This document shows, piece after piece, positions 1 to 39,025 of a stretch of 64,000 nt of DNA. A program made the position numbers and the translations under genes. The stretch is taken from contig AP026139.1 in assembly GCA_030295235.1 (NCBI GenBank), forward strand, positions 124,001 to 188,000, written 5' to 3'. Positions within the stretch are counted from its first letter, which is position 1. The number at the start of each line of letters is the position of its first letter. Source of the DNA: Fistulifera solaris (Eukaryota). The notes beneath the pieces are model-generated. The model was not told the origin of the DNA. It was given only the letters and a program-made list of their open reading frames with translations, and did not search any database.

Positions 1-2367
1 GTCCATCGGACGTTGGGATGCCTTTTGGATATTTATGCGGAGAAGGATCTAGCGGAGGGAACCGTGACGGAGCAAGAAATACAAGAAATTATTGACGATG
101 TGGTGATCAAGATGCGACTGGTCCGCCACTTGCGCCCTCCTGCATACAATGAGCTGTTCTCCGGCGATCCGACTTGGCTGACGATTGCTTTGGGCGGCTG
201 CAAAGAAGACGGCACGAGTCTCGTCACTAAGACTTCCTATCGCTTCTTGCACACTCTTACCAATTTAGGGCCTGCACCCGAGCCAAACTTGACAGTGCTT
301 TGGTCTCAAAACTTGCCCAACAACTTCAAGGAATACTGCGCTCAGCAATCCATCGACACGTCATCCATTCAGTACGAGAACGACGATATGATGCGACAAG
401 TATTCGGCTGTGATTACGGCATCGCGTGTTGCGTATCAGGTATGCGTCTTGGAGTTGACATGCAATTCTTCGGTGCAAGAACCAACATGGTGAAGCTTTT
501 GCTCATGTGCTTGAACGGCGGTAGAGACGAAATGCACGGTGATAAATTGTGTCCCGAACTCGAAGCCGAATGCGCAAAGCTGGGAATTGGAAAAGGTGAC
601 GAAGACAGACCCATCAGCTTCGAGCAGATTGAACGACTGTACTTTGATATTGCCATGCCGTGGATGGCCAAGCTGTACGCTGAGACGATGAATACAATCC
701 ACTATTCGCATGATCGCGCTTGCTATGAAAACTTGCAAATGGCACTGCATAACTCCAATGTGAACCGCTTGATGGCTTTTGGGTGCGCTGGACTCTCGGT
801 TGTCGCTGACTCCCTGGCCGCAATCAAGTATGATGATGTCTTCCCCGTTCGTAACGATGCGGATCTTACAGTCGGCTTCCGCCGTGCACACCCCAATCGA
901 GAGATTCCTCAGTTCGGCAACGATGACGACCGTGTGGATTCGTTAGCGGTCCGCGTTTGCTCTCGATTCTACGATGAATTGAACAAGCAACCGTTGTACC
1001 GCAATGCAAAAGCCACTCTTTCCATTTTGACCATTACGTCCAACTTGGTGTACGGAAAGGCAACTGGGGCGAGTCCAGATGGACGGGCGTCAGGAGAATC
1101 CTTCGCGCCTGGTTGCAATCCCATGCACGGCCGTGATAAGAACGGAGCTTTGGCGTCTCTCAGTTCGGTGACAAAAATTCCGTATGCCAAGTGTATGGAT
1201 GGAGTTTCCAATACATTCTGTCTGTTGCCGAACGCATTGGGACAGCCAAAGAACCGTAAATCCAACTTGGCTACCCTGTTAGACGGCTACTTCGCGCACA
1301 ATGGTCATCACATCAATATCAACGTTCTAAGCCGAGACATACTGAGGGACGCTCATCTTCACCCCGAGAAATACCCCAATTTGACCATTCGCGTTAGTGG
1401 TTACGCAGTTCGCTTCTGCCGTCTTACTCCCGAGCAGCGTGAGGAAGTGATGGCGCGCACGATGCACTCCTCCAGTGTCGTCACCATGGCCCATGCCGAC
1501 AAAAATCACGAATTGTACGGTTCCGATATGGAAGAAAAGAAACAAGAAGAAGTCCAAATTGAGGAGATAGAAGGTGTAGTTGAAGGCAATGCAGTATTGG
1601 GTAGCGTTTACTCGTTCGAAACGTTTTCGACAACGGATGGACCTGGAATTCGAACGAACGTGTTTTTGCAAGGTTGTCCCAAGAAGTGTACTTTCTGCTG
1701 CAACCCAGAGACACAAGCTCTGGCCAACCCCAAGGATCATCCGGAATTCGCCATGTCTTCGGCAGAAGTGGCTTCGTTGGTCAGCAAATACTCTGAATGG
1801 CTCAAACCCCGCGGTGGCGGAATCACCGTTTCGGGAGGAGAAGCTTTGGTGCAGTCTGATTTCGTAAGCGACTTATTCCAGAAGATTCACGAGGAAGGCT
1901 TGACAACTTGTTTGGACACAGCCTGCTTTGGCAACAAGGCCCGCTGGGACAAGGTTCTACCTCACACCGATAACGTCTTGTTGTGTATGAAAGGCATGAA
2001 CAACGATGTGGCTGCAAGTGTTGCTCGAGTGTCTCCGGCGGAGATGCAGAAATCGAAAGACTTCGCCCGATACATCCGAGACCACTATCCCAACATCCGC
2101 ATTACGTTACGCTGGGTGCTGTTGAAGGATATCACAGACACGGATAGTGAATTGGACGCACTCACAGCGTTTGCGAAGGAACTAGGACCCGTGTTCCATA
2201 CCATCGAACTGATTCCCTACCATGAGTTGGGTCGCGAAAAGTACGATGCGTTAAAGTGGGATTATCCTTTGCAAGATATGAGTTCCTACAAAAAAGAAGA
2301 CGCACAGCGTGTCCAAGAACGATTGTTGAACGGACACGTGGCGACTATTCTTAGCAACGTGTCTTAA
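1..2367 (+). CDS. pflB-pflA: Pyruvate formate-lyase (glycyl radical enzyme) fused to PFL-activating enzyme (radical SAM); 5' end lies outside the window
   Basis: One ORF holds the PFL Cys-Cys motif GIACCVSG (427-432), the glycyl radical motif RVSGYAV (Gly at 1399-1401), a ~45-aa acidic linker, then the activase signature [26 protein letters not shown] (CxxxCxxC 1675-1698), SGGE, LDT and ELIPYHELG. Frame 2 at 2-25 reads SIGRWDAF and joins LDIY if one T is added to the run at 23-26. Confidence 0.95.
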
Positions 2368-2511
2368 TAAGGCGACAACCAATTTGAAGTGTAGTTATTG
2401 TGGAAGTAATGCATATAAATATTGAATGAAGATTTTCTTTTACCTGATAACTCATGTTTCCATCCCATGTATGTTTTCTTTATCATTACATCTGTCGTAT
2501 TTTGATCTCAA

Positions 2512-3430: not shown

Positions 3431-4141
3431 TGTGAATTGTTTGTTGTTTTTGATATACAAAGATAGTAATTATAGTTCGATTTGGTATTACAGAAGACTA
3501 AGGATTGCAGCGCTGTAATGGGCGTCTTCTTCTTGGCGACGAAGAGGTGTGAGAGACGACCGTTGCAACACGAGTCATTTCTCGCAAAGACTGTGTTTGC
3601 GTTCCGTCGTTCGGGTCTCTAGTTCATGAATATGACATCACTTCTGGGGGAGCGGCTGGCTTCCCCCAACCCTACACTACACACTGCAAGTCGACTCGGA
3701 AGAGTTGCACTTGCATTCCCCATCCGACAACCTCCGGCACGCCAGCCTCACTCCCACATAAGCAATCGGTCGCGGAGTCGCGCCCCACTGATGGCCCGAC
3801 CGTTAAAGTTGGATTATCCGTCTCGCGGGAAACGATAGCAGATGACGATGACCTTGTTGGTATTGAACCTTTGGATGTACTTGTAGGTGAGTGAACATGA
3901 TGTATGATAAGAAAACATTAAAAAGATAACAAAAAGGAGTGGTTTATCCTGTAATTAAGGTTTCTATATCTCTATTATTTTACGATGTTATGATAGTGGT
4001 TCACAATAGAACACTAAGGAGAGACGACAATGATCTCCGTTGCCGTGCTCCTGCACAAAAAATTAAACGTTGCTGTTGCTATTTATGGATGACTGGTTCA
4101 TCCAAAAACTGGATCCTCTCAGTACCCATTGCTAGATGCGT

Positions 4142-24726: not shown

Positions 24727-26592
24727 ATGATATACCGAAGATTCGCTTTATTATTATTCCCCATGACCGTGACGGCGTTCTCGGCTACCACCACGTTACT
24801 AACGAAAAAACCAACGGGCACGTCGTTTCTGCCGGAAGAGACCATCGATCGCGCCAAGGCCGGCTCTCCCATTGAAAAGATTAAATTAGAAAAAGATGGT
24901 AGTGCGGCATGGGTGGATGTGTATGAATATGCTCGTAAGATACGGGAAGGAGAAATGAGTTGGGAAGAAGTGGAGAAAGCAGATTTGGATACGGTAGGTT
25001 TCTTTCATTCGTCGTCGTCGTCGTCGATGACGACATGTCACATTATCTTGCTGCTTCTCTCGTTCGTTTCGTTTTCTCACTTACACACAATTCTCTTCAA
25101 TACTTTGTACTTACAACAGCGCCTCAAATACGTCGGCATGTTACATCGGAACAAACGAACACCCGGACAATTCATGATGCGTCTCAAGGTACCCAACGGT
25201 ATTGTCAACAGCGATCAAATGCGCTTTTATGCTTCTTGTGTGGAGAAATACGACAATGGTTGTGTTGATATCACTACTCGTCAAAACATTCAATTACGGG
25301 GCGTCCGACTCGAACATGCCGATGTCATTATTGAAGGACTACACGCCCGGAATCAAACGTCCTTTCAAAGTGCTCTAGACAGTGTCCGCAATGTCGTCGG
25401 CAGTCCCTTGGCGGGCATTGATGACCAGGAAATGGTCGATACTCGCGAATTGTGTAACGCCTTGAATGATTTGATCAGTTTGGATCCAGCGACACAAACA
25501 CGAGGCAACCCCGCGTACGCCAATTTGCCCCGCAAATTCAATATTGCCATTTCGGGGTCACGGGATGATTATGCGCATACACACATTAATGACATTGGGT
25601 TGGTCCCCACGCCACATGCGCAGACGGGAGTCATGGGATTCAATGTTGTGTTGGGTGGCTACATGTCCATTAAACGCGTTGCGGAAAGTGTGGATTCGAA
25701 TATGTGGATTCCGGCAGACCGGAACAGTGTAGTGACACTCTGTGAAGCCATACTTCGTCTCTTTCGGGATGAATCCGATCGGAAAGATCGGCAAAAAGCT
25801 CGTTTGTTGTGGTTGGTCGAAAAGTACGGAGTCGCGGCATTTAAAGAAGCCGTCATCCAAGAAGTCCAAAGCTACCAACGCGGAGTCACCATTGAAGACG
25901 CTCAACCCCTGCCTACAACACCCTTTCAACGTCGTGAATTGTTGGGTGTTCACCCCCAACCACAAGAAGGAAAAATGCGCGTTGGGATCCTTGTCCCAGT
26001 GGGGCGTTTGAGTGCCACCGAATGCCGTCAATTGGCCGATCTCGCCGATCAATATTCGGCGGGTGAAATCCGATTGACCGTGGAACAAAATGTCATTTTG
26101 CCCAACGTCGATGCCACACGAATCGATGCCTTGTTACAAGAACCGGCACTCACTTCAAAGGACTCGCGCTTTCAAGTGAATCCTGGTTTCATTGAAGGCA
26201 ACGTCGTCAGCTGTACCGGTGCGGAATTCTGTGGACTGGCTTTGATTGAAACCAAAGCCAATGCGGCCGCCATGGGTCAAGAACTCGAAAAGTTGGTAAA
26301 AGTGGATCGTCCCATCCGCATTCATTGGACGGGCTGTCCCAATTCGTGTGCTCAAGTCCAAGTCGCCGATATTGGCATCATGGGAGCACCGGCCCGGAAG
26401 GAAATCAATGGTAAGAAAGTGGCCGTACCGGGATGCAAGATTTTTGTCGGTGGACGCATCGGTGAAGATGCCCACTTGGCGATCGATCCGGTGCAAGAGG
26501 CTGTACCGCTGGAAGACTTGATTCCGGAATTGGTGAAAATCTTGAAGAGTGAATTCGGCGCCGTGGATGTTTTAGTAGACAAACAAAATTGA
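24727..26592 (+). CDS. nirA: Ferredoxin-dependent nitrite reductase, plastid-targeted, one 126-bp intron
   Basis: FMMRLKVPNG, ITTRQNIQL, NLPRKFNIA, HINDIG, RQKARL, siroheme/4Fe-4S ligands SCTGAEFC and TGCPNSC; signal …VTA-F; intron 24994-25119. Confidence 0.95.
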   Translation: MIYRRFALLLFPMTVTAFSATTTLLTKKPTGTSFLPEETIDRAKAGSPIEKIKLEKDGSAAWVDVYEYARKIREGEMSWEEVEKADLDTVGFFHSSSSSSMTTCHIILLLLSFVSFSHLHTILFNTLYLQQRLKYVGMLHRNKRTPGQFMMRLKVPNGIVNSDQMRFYASCVEKYDNGCVDITTRQNIQLRGVRLEHADVIIEGLHARNQTSFQSALDSVRNVVGSPLAGIDDQEMVDTRELCNALNDLISLDPATQTRGNPAYANLPRKFNIAISGSRDDYAHTHINDIGLVPTPHAQTGVMGFNVVLGGYMSIKRVAESVDSNMWIPADRNSVVTLCEAILRLFRDESDRKDRQKARLLWLVEKYGVAAFKEAVIQEVQSYQRGVTIEDAQPLPTTPFQRRELLGVHPQPQEGKMRVGILVPVGRLSATECRQLADLADQYSAGEIRLTVEQNVILPNVDATRIDALLQEPALTSKDSRFQVNPGFIEGNVVSCTGAEFCGLALIETKANAAAMGQELEKLVKVDRPIRIHWTGCPNSCAQVQVADIGIMGAPARKEINGKKVAVPGCKIFVGGRIGEDAHLAIDPVQEAVPLEDLIPELVKILKSEFGAVDVLVDKQN

Positions 26593-28461: not shown

Positions 28462-31015
28462 TCAAGCGACAACAGGATCACGAGGAGGATCAACGACTAG
28501 CGCATCCTCTCCTTTAGTCTCTTGGGTAGTGGGATCGTGGTTGCGGAGAATAACAATATCATTCATGTCATCAGAAAGAAGATTGCTACTCCGCCATCCA
28601 TACGGTGCGTGGCCTTGTTTCTGCTGTTTCTGGGCTTCGGCTCGCGTCATGACCATGACCGTATCACCTTCTTGTAATGAACCTTCCAACAGTAAATAAC
28701 TCAGCGGATTTAACAATTCCTTGTTCAAAGTGCGCTTCAGTGGACGGGCTCCGTAACGAATGTCGTATCCCATTTCGGCTAAGGCGTTCTTGGCATTCTC
28801 ACTGATGTGTAGCTGCATGTTCTGATTACCTTCGAGCCGTTCTGTGATTTGTGTCAAATTCATGTCCAAAATGGCGTTCATATTGTCACGTTGCAAACGA
28901 TTGTAGATCACCACTTCATCCATACGATTGAGTAGCTCAGGACTAAGTGTACCTCGGACCACTTGCATAATAGCTTCTTGCACGGAAGGATCCGTGCTTT
29001 GCACCGAATCGGGCAAGCCAGCGAGTGTCTGTGCCCCCATGTTACTCGTCATAATGCAAATCACATTGCGAAAATCCACTCGTCTCCCGTGAGCGTCCGT
29101 CAATCGGCCTTCATCGAAGAGTTGAAGCAGCAAGTTCCACACGTCCGGATGTGCTTTTTCAAATTCATCCAACAATAGCACTTGATAAGGTCGTCGGCGT
29201 ACGGACTCAGTGAGGAAACCCGCCTCATCGTAGCCAATGTACCCGGGAGGTGCTCCTATGAGACGACTCACGGTATGCTTCTCTCCGTATTCGCTCATGT
29301 CGATACGAGTCATGGCATTTTCGTCGTCGAATAGAAATTGCGCCAACGCTTTCGCTGTTTCTGTCTTACCGACGCCAGTAGGTCCCAAAAATAGAAAGTT
29401 GCCAAGTGTTCTATCGTGAGCTTGCAATCGGGTTCGCGCCAAGCGAACGCAGTTGGCCACGGCTGTCAATGCGTGGTCTTGTCCCACGACACGTTGACGT
29501 AATTCCTCTTCTAAATGAAGTAATTTTTGAGATTCTTCTGCACCGGTTATTTTCGAAACGGGAATTCCGGTGTGCCGTGACACAATCGCCGCAATAGCCT
29601 CAGCTGTCACGGCATCAGCGAGCATCTTAGGATGAGAGGAAATGGTTTGCTCAACACGTTCTAATTCATGTTGCAAATTAGGAATGGTGGAATGCATCAA
29701 TTCACCCGCCTTGGCAAAGTTTCCTTGTCGACGAGCTTGTTCCAAGGCCACTTGAGCATCCTGTAAATCTGATTGTAGCGTTTTGACACGTTCCAATTCC
29801 GCTTTTTCTGCTTCCCATTCTTGCGTTAATCGCGCTTGTTCGGCTTGAAGTTCTTTTACCTGTGCGGTTACTTCCTTGAGACGAAGAACTGATTTCGCGT
29901 CCTGCTCTTGTTCTAAAGCGCTCTTTTCAATTTGCTTCGTCAACAAGTTGCGTTCAACATTCCACAGCACCTCCGGTTTACTTTCTTGTTCCAATCGGAG
30001 CCGGCTAGAAGCTTCATCAATGAGATCAATGGATTTGTCAGGTTGTTGTCGATCCGTCAAATAACGATCCGACAAATGTACCGCCGCCACCAAAGCTTCG
30101 TCTTGAATCCGCAATCCGTGATGCAATTCATACGATGTCTTTATACCGCGTAGGATGCTCAACGTGTCTTCAATATTGGGTTCGTTGACGTACACCGACT
30201 GAAACCGGCGCGCCAGAGCCGCATCTTTTCCAGAATCCGATATTCATCCAAAGTGGTAGCTCCGACTAACTGCAAATCCCCACGCGCCAATGCCGGCTTC
30301 AACAAATTCCCCATATCCATACTCCCCTCACCTTTACCGGCACCCACCATAGTATGCAATTCATCTAAAAACAAAATCACATTCCCTTGAGCTTGTTCCA
30401 CATCCCGCAAAACTCCTTTCAAACGCTCTTCAAATTGTCCCCGAACTCCGGCTCCCGCCATGAGCGCCGCTAAATCCAACGACAAGACCTGTTTGTGTTT
30501 CATACTTTCCGGCACATTCCCCGATTGGATGCGCGCCGCAATGGCTTCGGCAATCGCCGTTTTGCCCGTACCGGCATTCCCAATCAAGACCGGGTTGTTT
30601 TTCGTACGACGGGCCAAAATTTGCAAACAACGTCGGATTTCCTCTTCACGGCCTATCACCGGATCTAATTTGTTTTGTGCCGCGAGTGCCGTTAAATCGA
30701 CTGTGTACTGTGAATGAGAGTGAAAAGAAGGAGGGAATGAATGAGTCCTTGAAAAAAAACACTTTTCTAATCTTACAAACTGGATTGACACAAAAATATA
30801 TGTACCTGCTCCAAATAATGACCAGCTTTGTTGCTCTCTGGGTGCATCCATGGAGGAAGCATGCCGTTGTTGGATGACAAGCATCGTGATGCGACGAACA
30901 CGGGCTGAGACGGAAGCAATAGGCGATCGCTACGAAGGGCCGTCATCGTGGGAGCGAGACGACGGGAAACCACCCGCGCTGTGCGGGGATTTCGAACCAG
31001 TCGCGACAATAGCAT
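28462..31015 (-). CDS. clpB: ClpB/Hsp78-type AAA+ disaggregase, probably mitochondrial
   Basis: [35 protein letters not shown], coiled-coil M domain, [24 protein letters not shown]; Arg-rich presequence and no Clp N-domain; intron ~30709-30805; break ~30226. Confidence 0.93.
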
Positions 31016-35822: not shown

Positions 35823-38800
35823 ATGTCTTTGGAAGACAAGTTTAGTGCTTTAAGTTTGTCCGATGTGCCCTCGGTCATCGAGACCGCCAAGAAGGACTTG
35901 AAGGGCGTTGCCGCTGGAATCGAAGCTTTGAAGGCCCGTTGTGAATCCAAGGAAGACAGCGAAGCCATTGCTGCCTTGAGTTTGGTGCAGAAACTTATGG
36001 AAGAAGTTCCAGAGGCTCAGGCTTTCGTCAAGGAATGCCTTGGAGCATGTACGTAGCGTTATTCGATTCTATGCTTTCCTTTGTCATCAGCGACGACAGA
36101 AAATGCTCACTGCTTTATTTCTTTCTATCGAATTCAGGCCTAATGCAAACACTTCATAAGAGTGCCGAGGTGCGAAACCAGGCTGAAGCGACCGCGTTTG
36201 CTATTTGCGAGAAAATCAATCCTTTTGGTATGAAATCCCTCTTGCCCCAGATTTTCGCTGCCATGCCTGTGGAACAGAAGTGGCAAGTGCGAGAATTGGC
36301 GCTCAAATGCTTATCCAAGTTCAACAAGACTGCGCCGAAGCAGCTCGGAGATGCTCTTCCCGAGGTCATCCCCGAAGTCACCGCTTGCATGTGGGACACC
36401 AAGAAGCAAGTCAAGACTGCGGCCAATGAAGCTATGCAATCGGCCTTGGAGGTAATTGGAAACAGAGATATTGAACACATGACTGACAAGATTTTGAAAG
36501 CCATCACCACCCCCAAGGAAGTGCCCGAAATCATGCACAAAATGGCCGGTGTCACTTTTGTTCAATCCGTCGAATCGCCTGCGTTGGCCATGGTTGTGCC
36601 GTTGTTGCTTCGTGGACTTCGAGAAAAGAACACCGCTACAAAGCGACAGTCGGCTGTCATTATCAATAACATGAGTAAGCTTGTCGACAATCCTCTGGAT
36701 GCCGCTCCTTTCTTGCCCCTCTTGTTGCCTGCGTTGGAGCAGAACGCCGCATCCATTGCCGACCCCGAGGCTCGTGAGACCACCGAATTGGCTGTCAAGC
36801 AATTGCAACGCCTCAAGGGACTCGCTGATAAGCAAATGTCTGTCCGTGGTGACATTAGCAAGCTAGAGAACGAGTTCAAGAAGGCTTTCGGTATCGAGGA
36901 TGGTGATGCTAGCACGGAGCTTGTTGTCAAGTTCGCCGCTACCATTGCCACCACCATGATGGACTTGCATTACATGGAAGACATGCAATGGAAGAAGCAT
37001 GTTTCGGCTCAATTTACTGCTTTCTTTGATAGTGCCAAGTGCGAAGCTGCTACTGAAAAGGTCCGCGAAGAGGCTGAGAAGATGCTTGTCGTTCCCGAGG
37101 AAGACGATGAGGATGACGATGCCGAAGAATTGTGCAACTGCACTTTCACTTTGGCTTACGGTACCAAAATCTTGCTTCACAACACCAAGATGAAGTTGCT
37201 CCGTGGTCGTCGTTACGGTTTATTGGGAACCAACGACTGTGGTAAGACTACGTTAATGAGAGCTATTGCTAACAACCAGGTTGAAGGTTTCCCCGACACC
37301 GAGACTGTCCGAACCGTGTTCGTTGAAGCCGATATTCAAGGTGAACAATCGCATCTTTCGTGCGTCGAGTACGTCTTTATTGATCCCAAGATTCAGGCCA
37401 TGGGCATTTCCAGGGAAGAGGTCCGAACCGTTTTGGCTTCCGTCGGTTTCACTGAAGACGGAAAGGCCAAGCCCGACCACGCTGTGTCGACACTATCTGG
37501 TGGATGGCGCATGAAGCTTGCTCTTGCCCGTGCCATGTTGCAAAAGGCTGATATTCTTCTCATGGACGAGCCGACGAATCACTTGGATGTCATTAACGTT
37601 GCCTGGGTGAAGAAGTACTTGAATTCGTTGACCGACGTTACGTGTATCATCGTCAGTCACGATAGTGGCTTGTTGAACGACTGCTGCACCAACATTTTGT
37701 CTTTTGATAACCTCAAATTGAACACATTCAAGGGTAACTTGGATGAGTATGTCAAGGTCCACCCGCATGCGCGTGCGTACTTCACTCTCCAGACGTCTTC
37801 CAAGATGAAATTCAAATTCCCGCAGCCCGGCCCTATCGAAGGTGTGAAGAGTAGAGGAAAGGCTCTTATGAAAATGACCAACTGCACGTTCACGTACCCC
37901 AAGAACGAGAAGCCAACTCTCTTTGACATTACTGTGCAAGTGTCACTCAGTTCCCGTGTTGCCTGCATCGGTGAAAATGGAGCCGGAAAGAGTACCATGA
38001 TCAAGTTGTTGGTCGGAGAGATTGTTCCCCAAGTCGGTGAAGTTTGGAAGCATCCCAATGCTCGTATCGCGTATGTTGCCCAACACGCCTTCCACCACAT
38101 TGAAAGCCATTTGGACAAGACCCCGAACGAGTACATTCGTTGGCGTTTCGCGAACAACGGTGAAGATAAGGAAAGTTTGGTTAAGGTTTCCATGCAGTAC
38201 ACCGATGAGGAGATTGAGTTGCAGAAGAAGCCATTCGAGCTGCAAATTGTCGATGAGGCCAGTGGAAAGATCACCAAGGTGAAGAAGGTTGTTGCCGAAT
38301 TGGTTGGTGGCCGTAAGCAGAACAAGTCCAAGGAGTATGAGTATGAAGTTCGTTACGCCGGATCCACCGTCGAAAACGGTGAGTACCTGCCCGCCAAGAC
38401 CCTCAAGAAGATGGGTTGGGAGAAGGCTATGAAGGCGGTCGATTTGAAGCTCGCTCAGCGTGCCGGTATGTTCGTCAAGCCTCTTTCGACCAAGAACGTC
38501 GAAGAGCACTTGGAGGGCTGCGGTTTGGCTCGAGAGTTTGGTACCCATTACCGAATGAGCGCTCTGTCGGGTGGCCAGAAGGTCAAGGTCGTTTTGGCCG
38601 CGGCCATGTGGATGCAACCGCACATTGTGATTTTGGACGAGCCCACCAACTACTTGGATCGCGAGTCACTCGGTGCTTTGGCCGGTGCCATTGAAGAGTT
38701 CGAGGGAGGTATTATCATCATTTCTCACAACAACGAGTTCGTGGGCAAATTATGCCCCGAGACGTGGTTGATGGATGCCGGACATTTGGAGACCAAGGGT

Positions 38801-39025
38801 GACGCCGACTGGATGTTGAAGCAGGACACGAAGATTCAGGATCAAGTCCAAATTACCGAGATGACGGATGCTGCCGGTAACAAGATTGAAATCCAGCAAG
38901 ACAAGAAGAAGCTTTCGAAGAAGGAAGAAAAGGCTCTTATCAAGAAAATCAAGCAGAAGGTCAAGGACGGCGAGAAGTTGGACACGGACGAGGAAGAGTT
39001 TGCTTTTGAAAAGGATCTGTTGTAA
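35823..39025 (+). CDS. eEF3: Translation elongation factor 3 (eEF3-like ABC-F ATPase)
   Basis: HEAT region (KWQV…PEVTACMWDTK…TFVQSVESPALA), LCNCTFTLAYG, two ABC cassettes (LSGGWRMK, GENGAGKST, LSGGQKVK), insertion in ABC2, Lys-rich tail; intron 36049-36137; likely 5'UTR intron 35554-35788. Confidence 0.92.

Follow-up and report, generated by a model that had tools for sequence, protein, structure and literature searches.

The pyruvate formate-lyase (PFL) gene at the start of the window, which is the whole 64,000-nucleotide stretch of Fistulifera solaris DNA that was analysed, is very probably a nuclear diatom gene for a single-chain, bifunctional PFL with a tethered activase, which was fused only once and is activated by means of its tether. 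The fusion itself is confirmed to be real and not an artefact by contigs that run over the linker, by poly(A) ends and by conserved relatives. The protein begins with a short N-terminal extension, which is followed by a full PFL, a flexible linker of ~39 residues and, last, a complete PFL-activating enzyme of the radical-SAM type. The features that are discussed below are the following, with residues numbered along the window frame unless they are called full-length.

1..24, forward strand: start of the window inside the PFL coding region; its T-run at 23-26 is one T short compared with the sequencing contigs
25..1476, forward strand: C-terminal two thirds of the PFL domain (window aa 9-492, equal to aa 327-810 of the 1106-aa protein; Pfam and TIGR01255)
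427..432, forward strand: adjacent catalytic cysteines C143/C144 in the motif IACCVS (aa 141-146), equal to C418/C419 of E. coli by the 1h16 alignment
1102..1419, forward strand: glycyl-radical domain (Pfam Gly_radical, aa 368-473, E 1.6e-34)
1477..1593, forward strand: acidic, poorly conserved linker, predicted to be disordered (aa 493-531, ~39 residues between the PDB-aligned domain ends)
1594..2364, forward strand: complete PFL-activating enzyme domain of the radical-SAM type (aa 532-788)
1675..1698, forward strand: CX3CX2C cluster-binding motif (C559/C563/C566), aligned to CLMRCLYC of 3c8f
1834..1842, forward strand: GGE motif of the radical-SAM core (aa 612-614), aligned to SGGEA of 3c8f
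2365..2370, forward strand: two tandem TAA stop codons, the stop of the frame at 2365-2367 and a second TAA adjoining it
2426..2447, forward strand: poly(A) addition sites, with loose ends in A-runs at 2426, 2436, 2437, 2442 and 2447 (runs X2, X3 and X4)

Positions 1..2367 of the forward strand form one open frame of 788 codons that is open at its 5' end. This frame is identical at 780 of 781 residues to GenBank GAX16364.1 (P0123), a Fistulifera solaris protein of 1106 residues, which agrees with the photosynthetic-alga host that had been proposed from the letters alone. Compared with this protein, ~318 residues are absent from the window, and the start of the gene lies 5' of it. The annotation of GAX16364.1 names only a formate C-acetyltransferase. 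The neighbouring genes are of eukaryotic nuclear types (PRA1, a kinase, EF3, ClpB and a Na/H exchanger), and a megablast search of a plasmid collection gave zero matches to the sequence. The central claim of the earlier note, PFL and activase in one in-frame polypeptide, stands: a single frame holds both domains, and the linker between them contains neither a stop nor an indel.

The PFL part is recognized by the Pfam PFL-like profile (aa 8-352, profile 285-647 of 647, E 1.9e-108) and by NCBIfam TIGR01255 (aa 7-490, profile 266-742 of 744, E 7.5e-193), and the 1106-aa protein aligns to residues 21-757 of E. coli PFL (1h16) with E 1.6e-235. The catalytic cysteines (full-length C461/C462) are invariant in 45 fused proteins, as are G785/Y786 (full-length) of the motif RVSGY. 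This motif occupies aa 464-468 and is aligned to S733-G734 of E. coli PFL, with the radical glycine G467 encoded by nt 1399-1401. Also, the pyruvate-site motifs GDPTW and FFGAR are conserved in the 1h16 alignment, and the equivalent of E. coli R176 is found in GRGRIIGDYRR of the 1106-aa protein, 5' of the window; R176, W333 and R435 are pyruvate-site residues of E. coli PFL. The TIGR01255 equivalog cut-off of 994.2, which is tuned for prokaryotes, is missed by both the 1106-aa protein (953.7) and the window fragment (642.9), the next-best family scoring 228.7, and is exceeded by the Euglena gracilis orthologue (1013.8). The motif RTMH follows at aa 486-489. In 1h16, E. coli PFL has 759 residues and stops two residues past the position aligned to full-length residue 808, and 12 of the 13 separate PFLs that were read end 3-9 residues past RTF[HY]; the earlier statement that a PFL normally ends shortly after this point is therefore right.

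The activase domain is complete and, as had been noted, contains an intact CxxxCxxC. It aligns to residues 2-235 of the 245 residues of E. coli PFL-AE (3c8f, E 6.2e-42) and covers positions 2-231 of 235 of the TIGR02493 profile (aa 536-774), and Pfam places Fer4_12 at aa 546-635 and Radical_SAM at aa 555-715. Across the 45 fused proteins, the three cysteines of the cluster motif (full-length C877/C881/C884), G930 and G931 of GGE, and D864, G865 and P866 of DGPGIR show no variation, while E932 is conserved to at least 90%. DGPGIR is also conserved compared with 3c8f, and GGE has a role in SAM binding. The TIGR02493 equivalog cut-off of 231.75 is missed by the window (195) and the 1106-aa protein (194), although TIGR02493 is still the best activase family for the window, with TIGR02494 next at ~158; free Chlamydomonas PFL-AE lies above the cut-off (275.3). 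The fused activase is thus further from the bacterial model than the free algal activases are by their TIGR02493 scores.

The PDB-aligned limits of the linker are close to the ~1465-1600 estimated earlier. The linker contains no stop codon and no intron, and measures 43 residues from motif to motif, with 11 D/E against 3 K/R. In an AF2 model of the fusion (pLDDT 83.6, pTM 0.86), both domains have high confidence and the linker and N-terminus low confidence, with pLDDT 32-51 over full-length residues 811-840. Median identity to the 1106-aa protein is 71.4% for PFL and 57.0% for the activase but 11.7% for the linker (44 homologues for the linker). The linkers of the homologues vary in length, from 12 to 139 residues, and in charge, and the best recurrent motif, [DE][IVLM][DE][DE][LIFM], is present in only 16 of 111 distinct linkers.

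RNA evidence for Fistulifera solaris consists of cDNA-like short contigs from four runs (X1-X4), the longest of which over the linker is 172 nt. A contig covering 1464-1635 bridges the linker in X3 and X4, no splice junctions are reported in the linker contigs, and no linker stop or indel occurs in any of the four runs. The mapping over 1440-1620 that the earlier note had proposed thus leaves the linker intact, with a synonymous G>C at 1461 as the sole difference. Within the open reading frame, 15 of 17 differences between window and contigs are at third codon positions. Among the loose ends listed, none ends in an A-run 5' of 2426, and runs X2-X4 have little or no cover past 2520. The depth of the contigs is unsuitable for comparing the two halves of the gene. 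In run X2, one contig departs from the window sequence at 1568, in the linker, and another at 1679; a 16-nt piece of one of these loose ends is absent from the window.

The two halves of the fusion resemble the textbook pair of PflB and PflA from E. coli (1h16; 3c8f/3cb8) in their folds, in the Cys-Cys pair, in RVSGY, FFGAR, CX3CX2C, DGPGIR and GGE, and in alignments that run end to end. The E. coli system consists of two proteins, whereas that of Fistulifera is one chain in which a linker of ~39 residues joins the parts 1:1. In E. coli, the activase is catalytic and sub-stoichiometric to PFL, unlike the 1:1 ratio of the fusion. Chlamydomonas, another eukaryotic alga, has a PFL system that shares this overall origin, and its PFL-AE groups with the eukaryotic activases, but PFL1 and PFL-AE are two genes and two proteins there, and the free activase is 39% identical to the activase domain of the window.

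The architecture is not restricted to Fistulifera. Gly_radical and Radical_SAM occur together in 92 of the 120 best database relatives listed, transcriptome ORFs included, and RVSGY is followed by CxxxCxxC in 132 of the 271 proteins fetched. Named carriers are the diatoms Epithemia, Cyclostephanos, Thalassiosira profunda, Cyclotella atomus, Conticribra, Seminavis and Pseudictyota and, in addition, Prymnesium parvum, Chromera velia, Polarella glacialis, Euglena gracilis and E. longa. Complete fused transcriptome ORFs are available for Euglena gracilis, E. longa, Conticribra weissflogii, Pseudictyota dubia and several MMETSP transcripts. The other algal fusions, which are known from database records, share with Fistulifera the order of domains, a clade in both trees and the RTMH signature (19 of 20 fused sequences, against RTF[HY] in 12 of 13 separate ones), and differ in the length and charge of the linker and in their N-terminal extensions. 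Because a name such as formate C-acetyltransferase hides the activase, surveys for a separate PFLA may wrongly score its absence in such organisms.

The candidates for separate genes that were read did not hold. Radical_SAM is missing from 28 of the listed relatives, and four of these, seemingly unfused diatom PFLs, were read (P0062, P0068, P0091 and P0097); all four run past the linker and stop within the N-terminal part of the activase, which marks them as models that are truncated or interrupted by an intron rather than as free PFLs. Ten candidate free activases among the short matches with at least 50% identity were read as fusion fragments: in six the first residue is the Met of RTMH, another starts further upstream, in the glycyl-radical domain of PFL, and three have other N-termini.

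The search for the PFL, Gly_radical and Radical_SAM architecture proposed by the earlier note thus found it to be common in diatoms, and the lead given there to such a fusion in a diatom was sound. Novelty, which the note wanted to see checked, is not supported, as this protein already has a GenBank record and most of the listed relatives share its architecture. The fusion is little studied rather than new, with public sequences for many algae. A diatom PFL-activase fusion is said to have been noted in the earlier PFL literature. In the literature searched, which was covered in part, neither a statement of an algal PFL-activase fusion nor biochemical work on it was found.

Separate trees of the two domains, as had been recommended, both have a branch with strong support that keeps the eukaryotic fusions to a single side. 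In the activase tree (43 sequences, five left out), all 18 of 18 eukaryotic fused sequences fall to the same side of a branch supported at 100/99, as they do in 100% of 200 bootstrap trees. In the PFL tree, the corresponding branch (99 SH-aLRT) has 19 fused eukaryotic sequences and one doubtful sequence to one side. A single old fusion fits both trees. In the activase tree, Chara is sister to the fused clade (93/97), the chlorophytes are outside, and the fused clade is nested among free eukaryotic activases, so that a fusion inside the eukaryotes fits better than the direct inheritance of an operon. The two parts were probably joined a single time, in the gene ancestral to the PFL genes of diatoms, haptophytes, chromerids, dinoflagellates and euglenids, and the joined gene has since been handed down or transferred whole. 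The fused clade sits on a long stem (0.63), and its activase may have drifted in its mode of action.

By analogy with the two separate enzymes, anoxia would lead to reduction of the [4Fe-4S] cluster of the activase domain. The activase would then cleave S-adenosylmethionine, and the resulting 5'-deoxyadenosyl radical would take a hydrogen from G467 of a PFL domain, for which the glycyl-radical domain would have to be swung out of the PFL barrel. The active PFL, an oxygen-sensitive fermentation enzyme, would convert pyruvate and CoA to acetyl-CoA and formate by means of the C143/C144 pair. The tether would set the 1:1 ratio and hold the activase beside its substrate. With a linker of 39 residues that is predicted to be disordered, the activase would be able to reach PFL either in its own chain or in the other chain of the homodimer; installation of the glycyl radical by the tethered activase, in cis or within the dimer, is the most likely course. 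Points against this reading are the equivalog cut-offs that both halves miss, the long stem of the fused activases, a 1:1 ratio unlike that of E. coli, the shortness of the RNA contigs, the two X2 contigs that depart from the window and the one-base difference at nt 22.

The same fusion could be a frozen accident, in which adjacent pflB and pflA genes were joined by the loss of a stop codon, no kinetic benefit resulted and the activase acts in trans on any PFL; this reading is less probable, although it has to be taken seriously. In bacteria, pflB is followed directly by pflA in 66 of the 80 loci nearest to a 993-aa bacterial-type fused protein (P0106), and seven of these 66 have pflB and pflA in frame with each other, separated by nothing but the stop codon. 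Among these 80 loci, none is fused, 66 are separate and 14 are incomplete; P0106 itself could be either a fusion that is real but rare or the product of an indel error. In Lundin et al. 2010 (PMC3019208), the eukaryotic NrdDG, a glycyl radical enzyme that likewise shares a single ORF with its radical-SAM activase and has unfused bacterial relatives, is explained as a fusion for the expression of a transferred operon. NrdDG is, however, a class III ribonucleotide reductase of another enzyme family, with fungi and oomycetes as its hosts (PMC3019208), and the PFL-activase trees favour a fusion within the eukaryotes. The nesting of the fused activases among free eukaryotic ones argues against a frozen accident, as does the retention of the fusion across very distant algae, with no reversion to separate genes confirmed among the sequences read.

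It is unlikely that the fusion is a means of expression or delivery, that is, a polyprotein whose linker is cut by a protease after translation or import to give free enzymes that work as in bacteria or green algae. A hypervariable linker that is predicted to be disordered would be open to proteases. The Thalassiosirales copies have signal-peptide-like N-termini that are followed by an AFV motif, and a single presequence of this kind could deliver both enzymes. Euglenids and dinoflagellates, which are among the carriers of the fusion, are known for polyprotein precursors. However, no shared cleavage motif was found across the 111 distinct linkers, and the copies of Chromera, Prymnesium and Euglena are without any N-terminal extension, so co-delivery is not a general reason for the fusion.

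Two further readings give oxygen a role beyond inactivation. It is quite unlikely that the protein is a self-activating PFL that also serves as a device for its oxygen history, in which each hit by O2 would cut the chain at G467 and the freed activase of ~321 residues would re-arm intact or newly made PFL in trans on anoxia; if true, fermentation in benthic diatoms would resume quickly after each oxic-anoxic swing. The oxygen switch of the earlier note, in which the freed fragment with its short PFL tail would have a putative regulatory or re-activating role, is very unlikely. Cleavage by O2 at the glycyl radical is established for glycyl radical enzymes (PMC3019208) and PFL is inactivated by O2 (PMC8003979). 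Given the geometry of the fusion, release of the fragment would be unavoidable if the radical form meets O2. On the other hand, the linker and the tail after the glycine lack conservation beyond the PFL fold, and the fusion is present in the non-photosynthetic Euglena longa. The [4Fe-4S] cluster of the activase is itself labile to O2, which also counts against a switch. The aftermath of O2 cleavage is where the spare-part proteins GrcA/YfiD come in; the GrcA models match the C-terminal PFL segment of the window. GrcA is a free small protein that replaces the cleaved tail of PFL, whereas the PFL tail of Fistulifera has an activase after it.

Searches of PDB sequences gave PFL alone and activase alone and no structure of a full complex of a glycyl radical enzyme and its activase, and a naturally tethered pair is an obvious candidate for trapping this complex and for probing intramolecular activation. 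Those diatoms, haptophytes, chromerids, dinoflagellates and euglenids that have the fusion carry PFL and activase as one unit, and with NrdDG as the first, the gene is a second example in eukaryotes of a radical enzyme that has merged with its activase into a single gene.

Finally, an artefact or pseudogene, in which two genes are read through by an assembly error or the gene is broken at nt 22, is extremely improbable: the window is one T short at nt 22 compared with all covering contigs and its frame is, as given, shifted upstream of this point, but the indel lies in the window and not in the reads, the deposited protein is continuous, the linker is free of indels and stops in four runs, and the fusion is found in dozens of species. 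A one-base difference at nt 22 would, if real, break the gene. Every contig that covers the site has one extra T behind nt 22 (three of the three runs that reach it, X1, X2 and X3, with X4 giving no cover), and since the T-run at 23-26 is one T short in the window, nt 1-22 are out of frame with the true gene. An X1 contig matches nt 8-194 with zero mismatches and a single gap, the missing T, and with this T added the frame reads SIGRWDAF, as in GAX16364.1. The one-base indel thus belongs to the window sequence, and the reads are without it.

The first 2367 nucleotides of the window's forward strand form a single open frame of 788 codons, which reaches the window's left edge still open on its 5' side and stops at a TAA codon (2365-2367) with a second TAA directly after it. 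In the earlier note, this frame was described as a pyruvate formate-lyase (PFL) joined in one polypeptide, by a linker at about 1465-1600, to its own radical-SAM activase (PFL-AE). The domain matches, motifs and structure-aligned ends show that both the description and the coordinates are correct. The features, numbered in residues of the window frame, are the following:

aa 8-352, + strand: PFL-like domain (Pfam; last 363 positions of the 647-position profile)
aa 7-490, + strand: PFL model (NCBIfam; profile positions 266-742 of 744)
aa 368-473, + strand: Gly_radical domain (Pfam)
aa 464-468, + strand: RVSGY glycyl-radical motif (from sequence), G467 at nt 1399-1401
aa 486-489, + strand: RTMH (from sequence), after RVSGY
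aa 493-531 (nt 1477-1593), + strand: linker of 39 residues, between the ends aligned to 1h16 and 3c8f
aa 536-774, + strand: PFL-activase model (NCBIfam; profile positions 2-231 of 235)
aa 546-715, + strand: Fer4_12 with Radical_SAM (Pfam)
C559, C563 and C566, + strand: activase cluster motif (from sequence and alignment)

Measured from motif to motif, the linker is 43 residues long, with 11 acidic versus 3 basic residues. The frame is identical in 780 of 781 residues to GAX16364.1 ('formate C-acetyltransferase [Fistulifera solaris]', 1106 aa), and therefore about 318 residues of the gene are located upstream of the window. By this match, the source of the window is this pennate diatom or a strain almost identical to it. 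This full-length protein aligns with E. coli PFL (1h16) over residues 21-757 of 759 and with E. coli PFL-AE (3c8f) over residues 2-235 of 245. A second Fistulifera solaris copy is present as GAX28273.1 (1107 aa).

Contigs from four sequencing runs (X1-X4) of one study were compared with nt 1-2700. The linker is bridged in X3 and X4 by contigs spanning 1464-1635, and the frame is unbroken there, the sole difference from the window in this region being a synonymous G>C at 1461 (ACG to ACC, Thr487 kept). No intron joint was reported by the contigs anywhere in nt 1-2700 in the four runs, and none of the loose ends listed is an A-run end upstream of 2426. In X2, X3 and X4, an A-run ends the contigs at 2426-2447, with little or no cover beyond 2520, which is cDNA-like; X1 continues beyond this zone and is DNA-like. 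By our count, third codon positions take 15 of the 17 differences listed within the frame. The contigs are short and each covers less than both halves, so the transcript support is piecewise. In X2, one contig departs from the window sequence at 1568, within the linker, and another at 1679, running on for 173 and 255 unmatched letters, respectively; a 16-nt piece of the loose end at 1568 is absent from the window. These departures could stem from contig chimerism, from a copy that carries an indel, or from an alternative transcript.

At the start of the window, the T-run at 23-26 has four T, and all covering contigs have five (3/3 runs reaching the site); an X1 contig matches nt 8-194 with zero mismatches, a one-T gap being the sole difference. 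With the added T, the frame gives SIGRWDAF..., matching the deposited protein. Since the contigs and this protein agree on the extra T, the window sequence is the odd one out. In the window as given, the PFL gene is frameshifted relative to its upstream part, and the missing T is probably a homopolymer error in the underlying assembly. Judged by sequence, the window is nuclear DNA and a bacterial contaminant is excluded, because the other long frames match ordinary eukaryotic proteins (PRA1, protein kinase, nitrite/sulfite reductase, ClpB, EF3 and a Na/H exchanger). These neighbours are ordinary nuclear genes; the frames at 24727-26592 (+), 36035-39025 (+) and 28462-30195 (-) match a ferredoxin-type nitrite/sulfite reductase, elongation factor 3 and a ClpB-type chaperone, respectively.

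The combined architecture is found well beyond Fistulifera, with Gly_radical and Radical_SAM both present in 92 of the 120 best relatives listed. Carriers include the diatoms Fistulifera, Epithemia, Cyclostephanos, Thalassiosira profunda, Cyclotella atomus, Conticribra, Seminavis and Pseudictyota, the haptophyte Prymnesium parvum, the dinoflagellate Polarella glacialis, Chromera velia, and Euglena gracilis and E. longa. Complete fused ORFs occur in transcriptomes of E. gracilis, E. longa, Conticribra weissflogii, Pseudictyota dubia and further MMETSP organisms, providing independent support that the fusion is real. Separate PFLs terminate 3-9 residues past RTF[HY] in 12/13 cases. Four diatom models that appeared to be PFL-only were rejected as free PFLs, as all four read through the linker into the activase N-terminus and then break off. 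Among ten short 'activase' matches examined, no free activase was established: the Met of RTMH is the first residue of six, another starts further upstream within the glycyl-radical domain of PFL, and the N-termini of the last three are different again. At the ends of the related proteins P0062 and P0068, and in P0183, the frame breaks just past GCPKKC, inside the cluster motif, and what is left of the activase is annotated as a small protein of its own, which points to a spliceosomal intron within the activase domain of these species. P0068 and P0183 are listed on contigs of equal size. The window copy has no such intron.

Separate trees were built for the two domains, and the eukaryotic fusions group together in both. 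The activase tree, made with the careful method, holds 38 rows; five were excluded, two with long branches and three from another fused group. A branch with support 100/99 has all 18 eukaryotic fused rows on the same side; they are grouped in 100% of 200 bootstrap trees and have the free Chara activase as sister (93/97); chlorophyte and bacterial-type activases fall outside this group. The quick PFL tree places 19 fused eukaryotic rows, together with one doubtful MMETSP row, on the same side of a branch with an SH-aLRT of 99, and the sub-groups of fused rows are the same. With both trees unrooted and the direction of change inferred, the simplest reading is that the fusion arose once, long ago, and has been passed on whole, by inheritance or transfer.

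Identity to the Fistulifera protein, as the median of 44 fused homologues, stands at 71.4% in PFL, 57.0% in the activase, 11.7% in the linker and 26.2% in the N-terminal extension. All catalytic residues are invariant in 45 sequences, namely the Cys-Cys pair, FFGAR, RVSGY, DGPG, the three cluster cysteines and the GG of GGE. Among 111 distinct linkers, lengths run from 12 to 139 residues (median 39) and the net charge is negative in 80; 16 of the 111 contain a short acidic-hydrophobic motif, versus about one expected from shuffled linkers, and the window linker carries the related EEIEG. AlphaFold2, run on the 45-sequence alignment, gave a mean pLDDT of 83.6 and a pTM of 0.86, with low confidence only at residues 1-53, patches of 664-687 and the linker. 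Both halves score just below the prokaryote-tuned NCBIfam cut-offs, while the free Chlamydomonas activase is above the one for activases, and the fused activases are on a long stem in their tree. For these reasons, the activase may have relaxed or adapted after tethering.

[quoted passage not shown] The tether would set a 1:1 ratio and hold both enzymes near each other, and the linker, with about 39 residues and predicted disorder, could reach within its own chain or across to the dimer partner. Less likely, conjectural alternatives are that the product is a processed polyprotein, that the fusion is a selectively neutral relic of gene adjacency, or that it acts as the oxygen switch proposed in the earlier note. 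A PFL-activase fusion has reportedly been noted for a diatom before. Novelty was not borne out: since the identical protein and many orthologues are public, the fusion is already known at the sequence level. A literature search, with the likeliest papers outside its reach, found no explicit description of it. The closest published analogue found is the eukaryotic NrdD-NrdG fusion (PMC3019208).

The N-termini differ between two diatom groups. The copies of Thalassiosira, Cyclotella and Conticribra (P0063, P0069, P0135) have a hydrophobic, signal-peptide-like start and then an AFV motif, an arrangement resembling plastid targeting, versus a basic, non-hydrophobic start in Fistulifera, Epithemia and Cyclostephanos (P0123, P0009, P0024); the Fistulifera extension is without a hydrophobic core. 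Co-delivery of both enzymes by a single presequence may matter in the Thalassiosirales; it cannot be the general reason for the fusion, because the copies of Chromera, Prymnesium and Euglena lack any extension.

A fused protein of bacterial type, P0106 (993 aa, from a Logan contig, 20-residue linker), is placed among bacterial sequences in both trees. Its nearest genome relative (L001, Candidatus Limiplasma sp., 87% identity) has two overlapping ORFs in different frames. P0106 itself is a rare fusion in bacteria or else the product of an indel error. None of the 80 bacterial loci nearest to it is fused; pflB is followed by pflA in 66, and in seven of these (L015, L032, L033, L038, L041, L042 and L076; at about 3705-3712 in each) the genes share a frame with a stop codon alone between them. 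A single point mutation would fuse them, showing the ease with which such a fusion could arise.

Other fusions found by the search were an activase N-terminal to a glycyl radical enzyme, flavodoxin-activase and activase-Crp/FNR. The first, reverse order is seen in P0333 (1095 aa), where an N-terminal activase with an extra ferredoxin-like insert precedes a full PFL-like glycyl radical enzyme. P0405 and P0320 combine a PFL-type activase with a cNMP-binding domain and a Crp/FNR-type helix-turn-helix, that is, a radical-SAM activase joined to a transcription-factor module. In P0340 (Eukaryota sp. GEM-RC1, KAL0228655.1) and P0372, the N-terminal partner of a PFL-type activase is a flavodoxin, so that the chain would also carry the likely electron donor of the activase.
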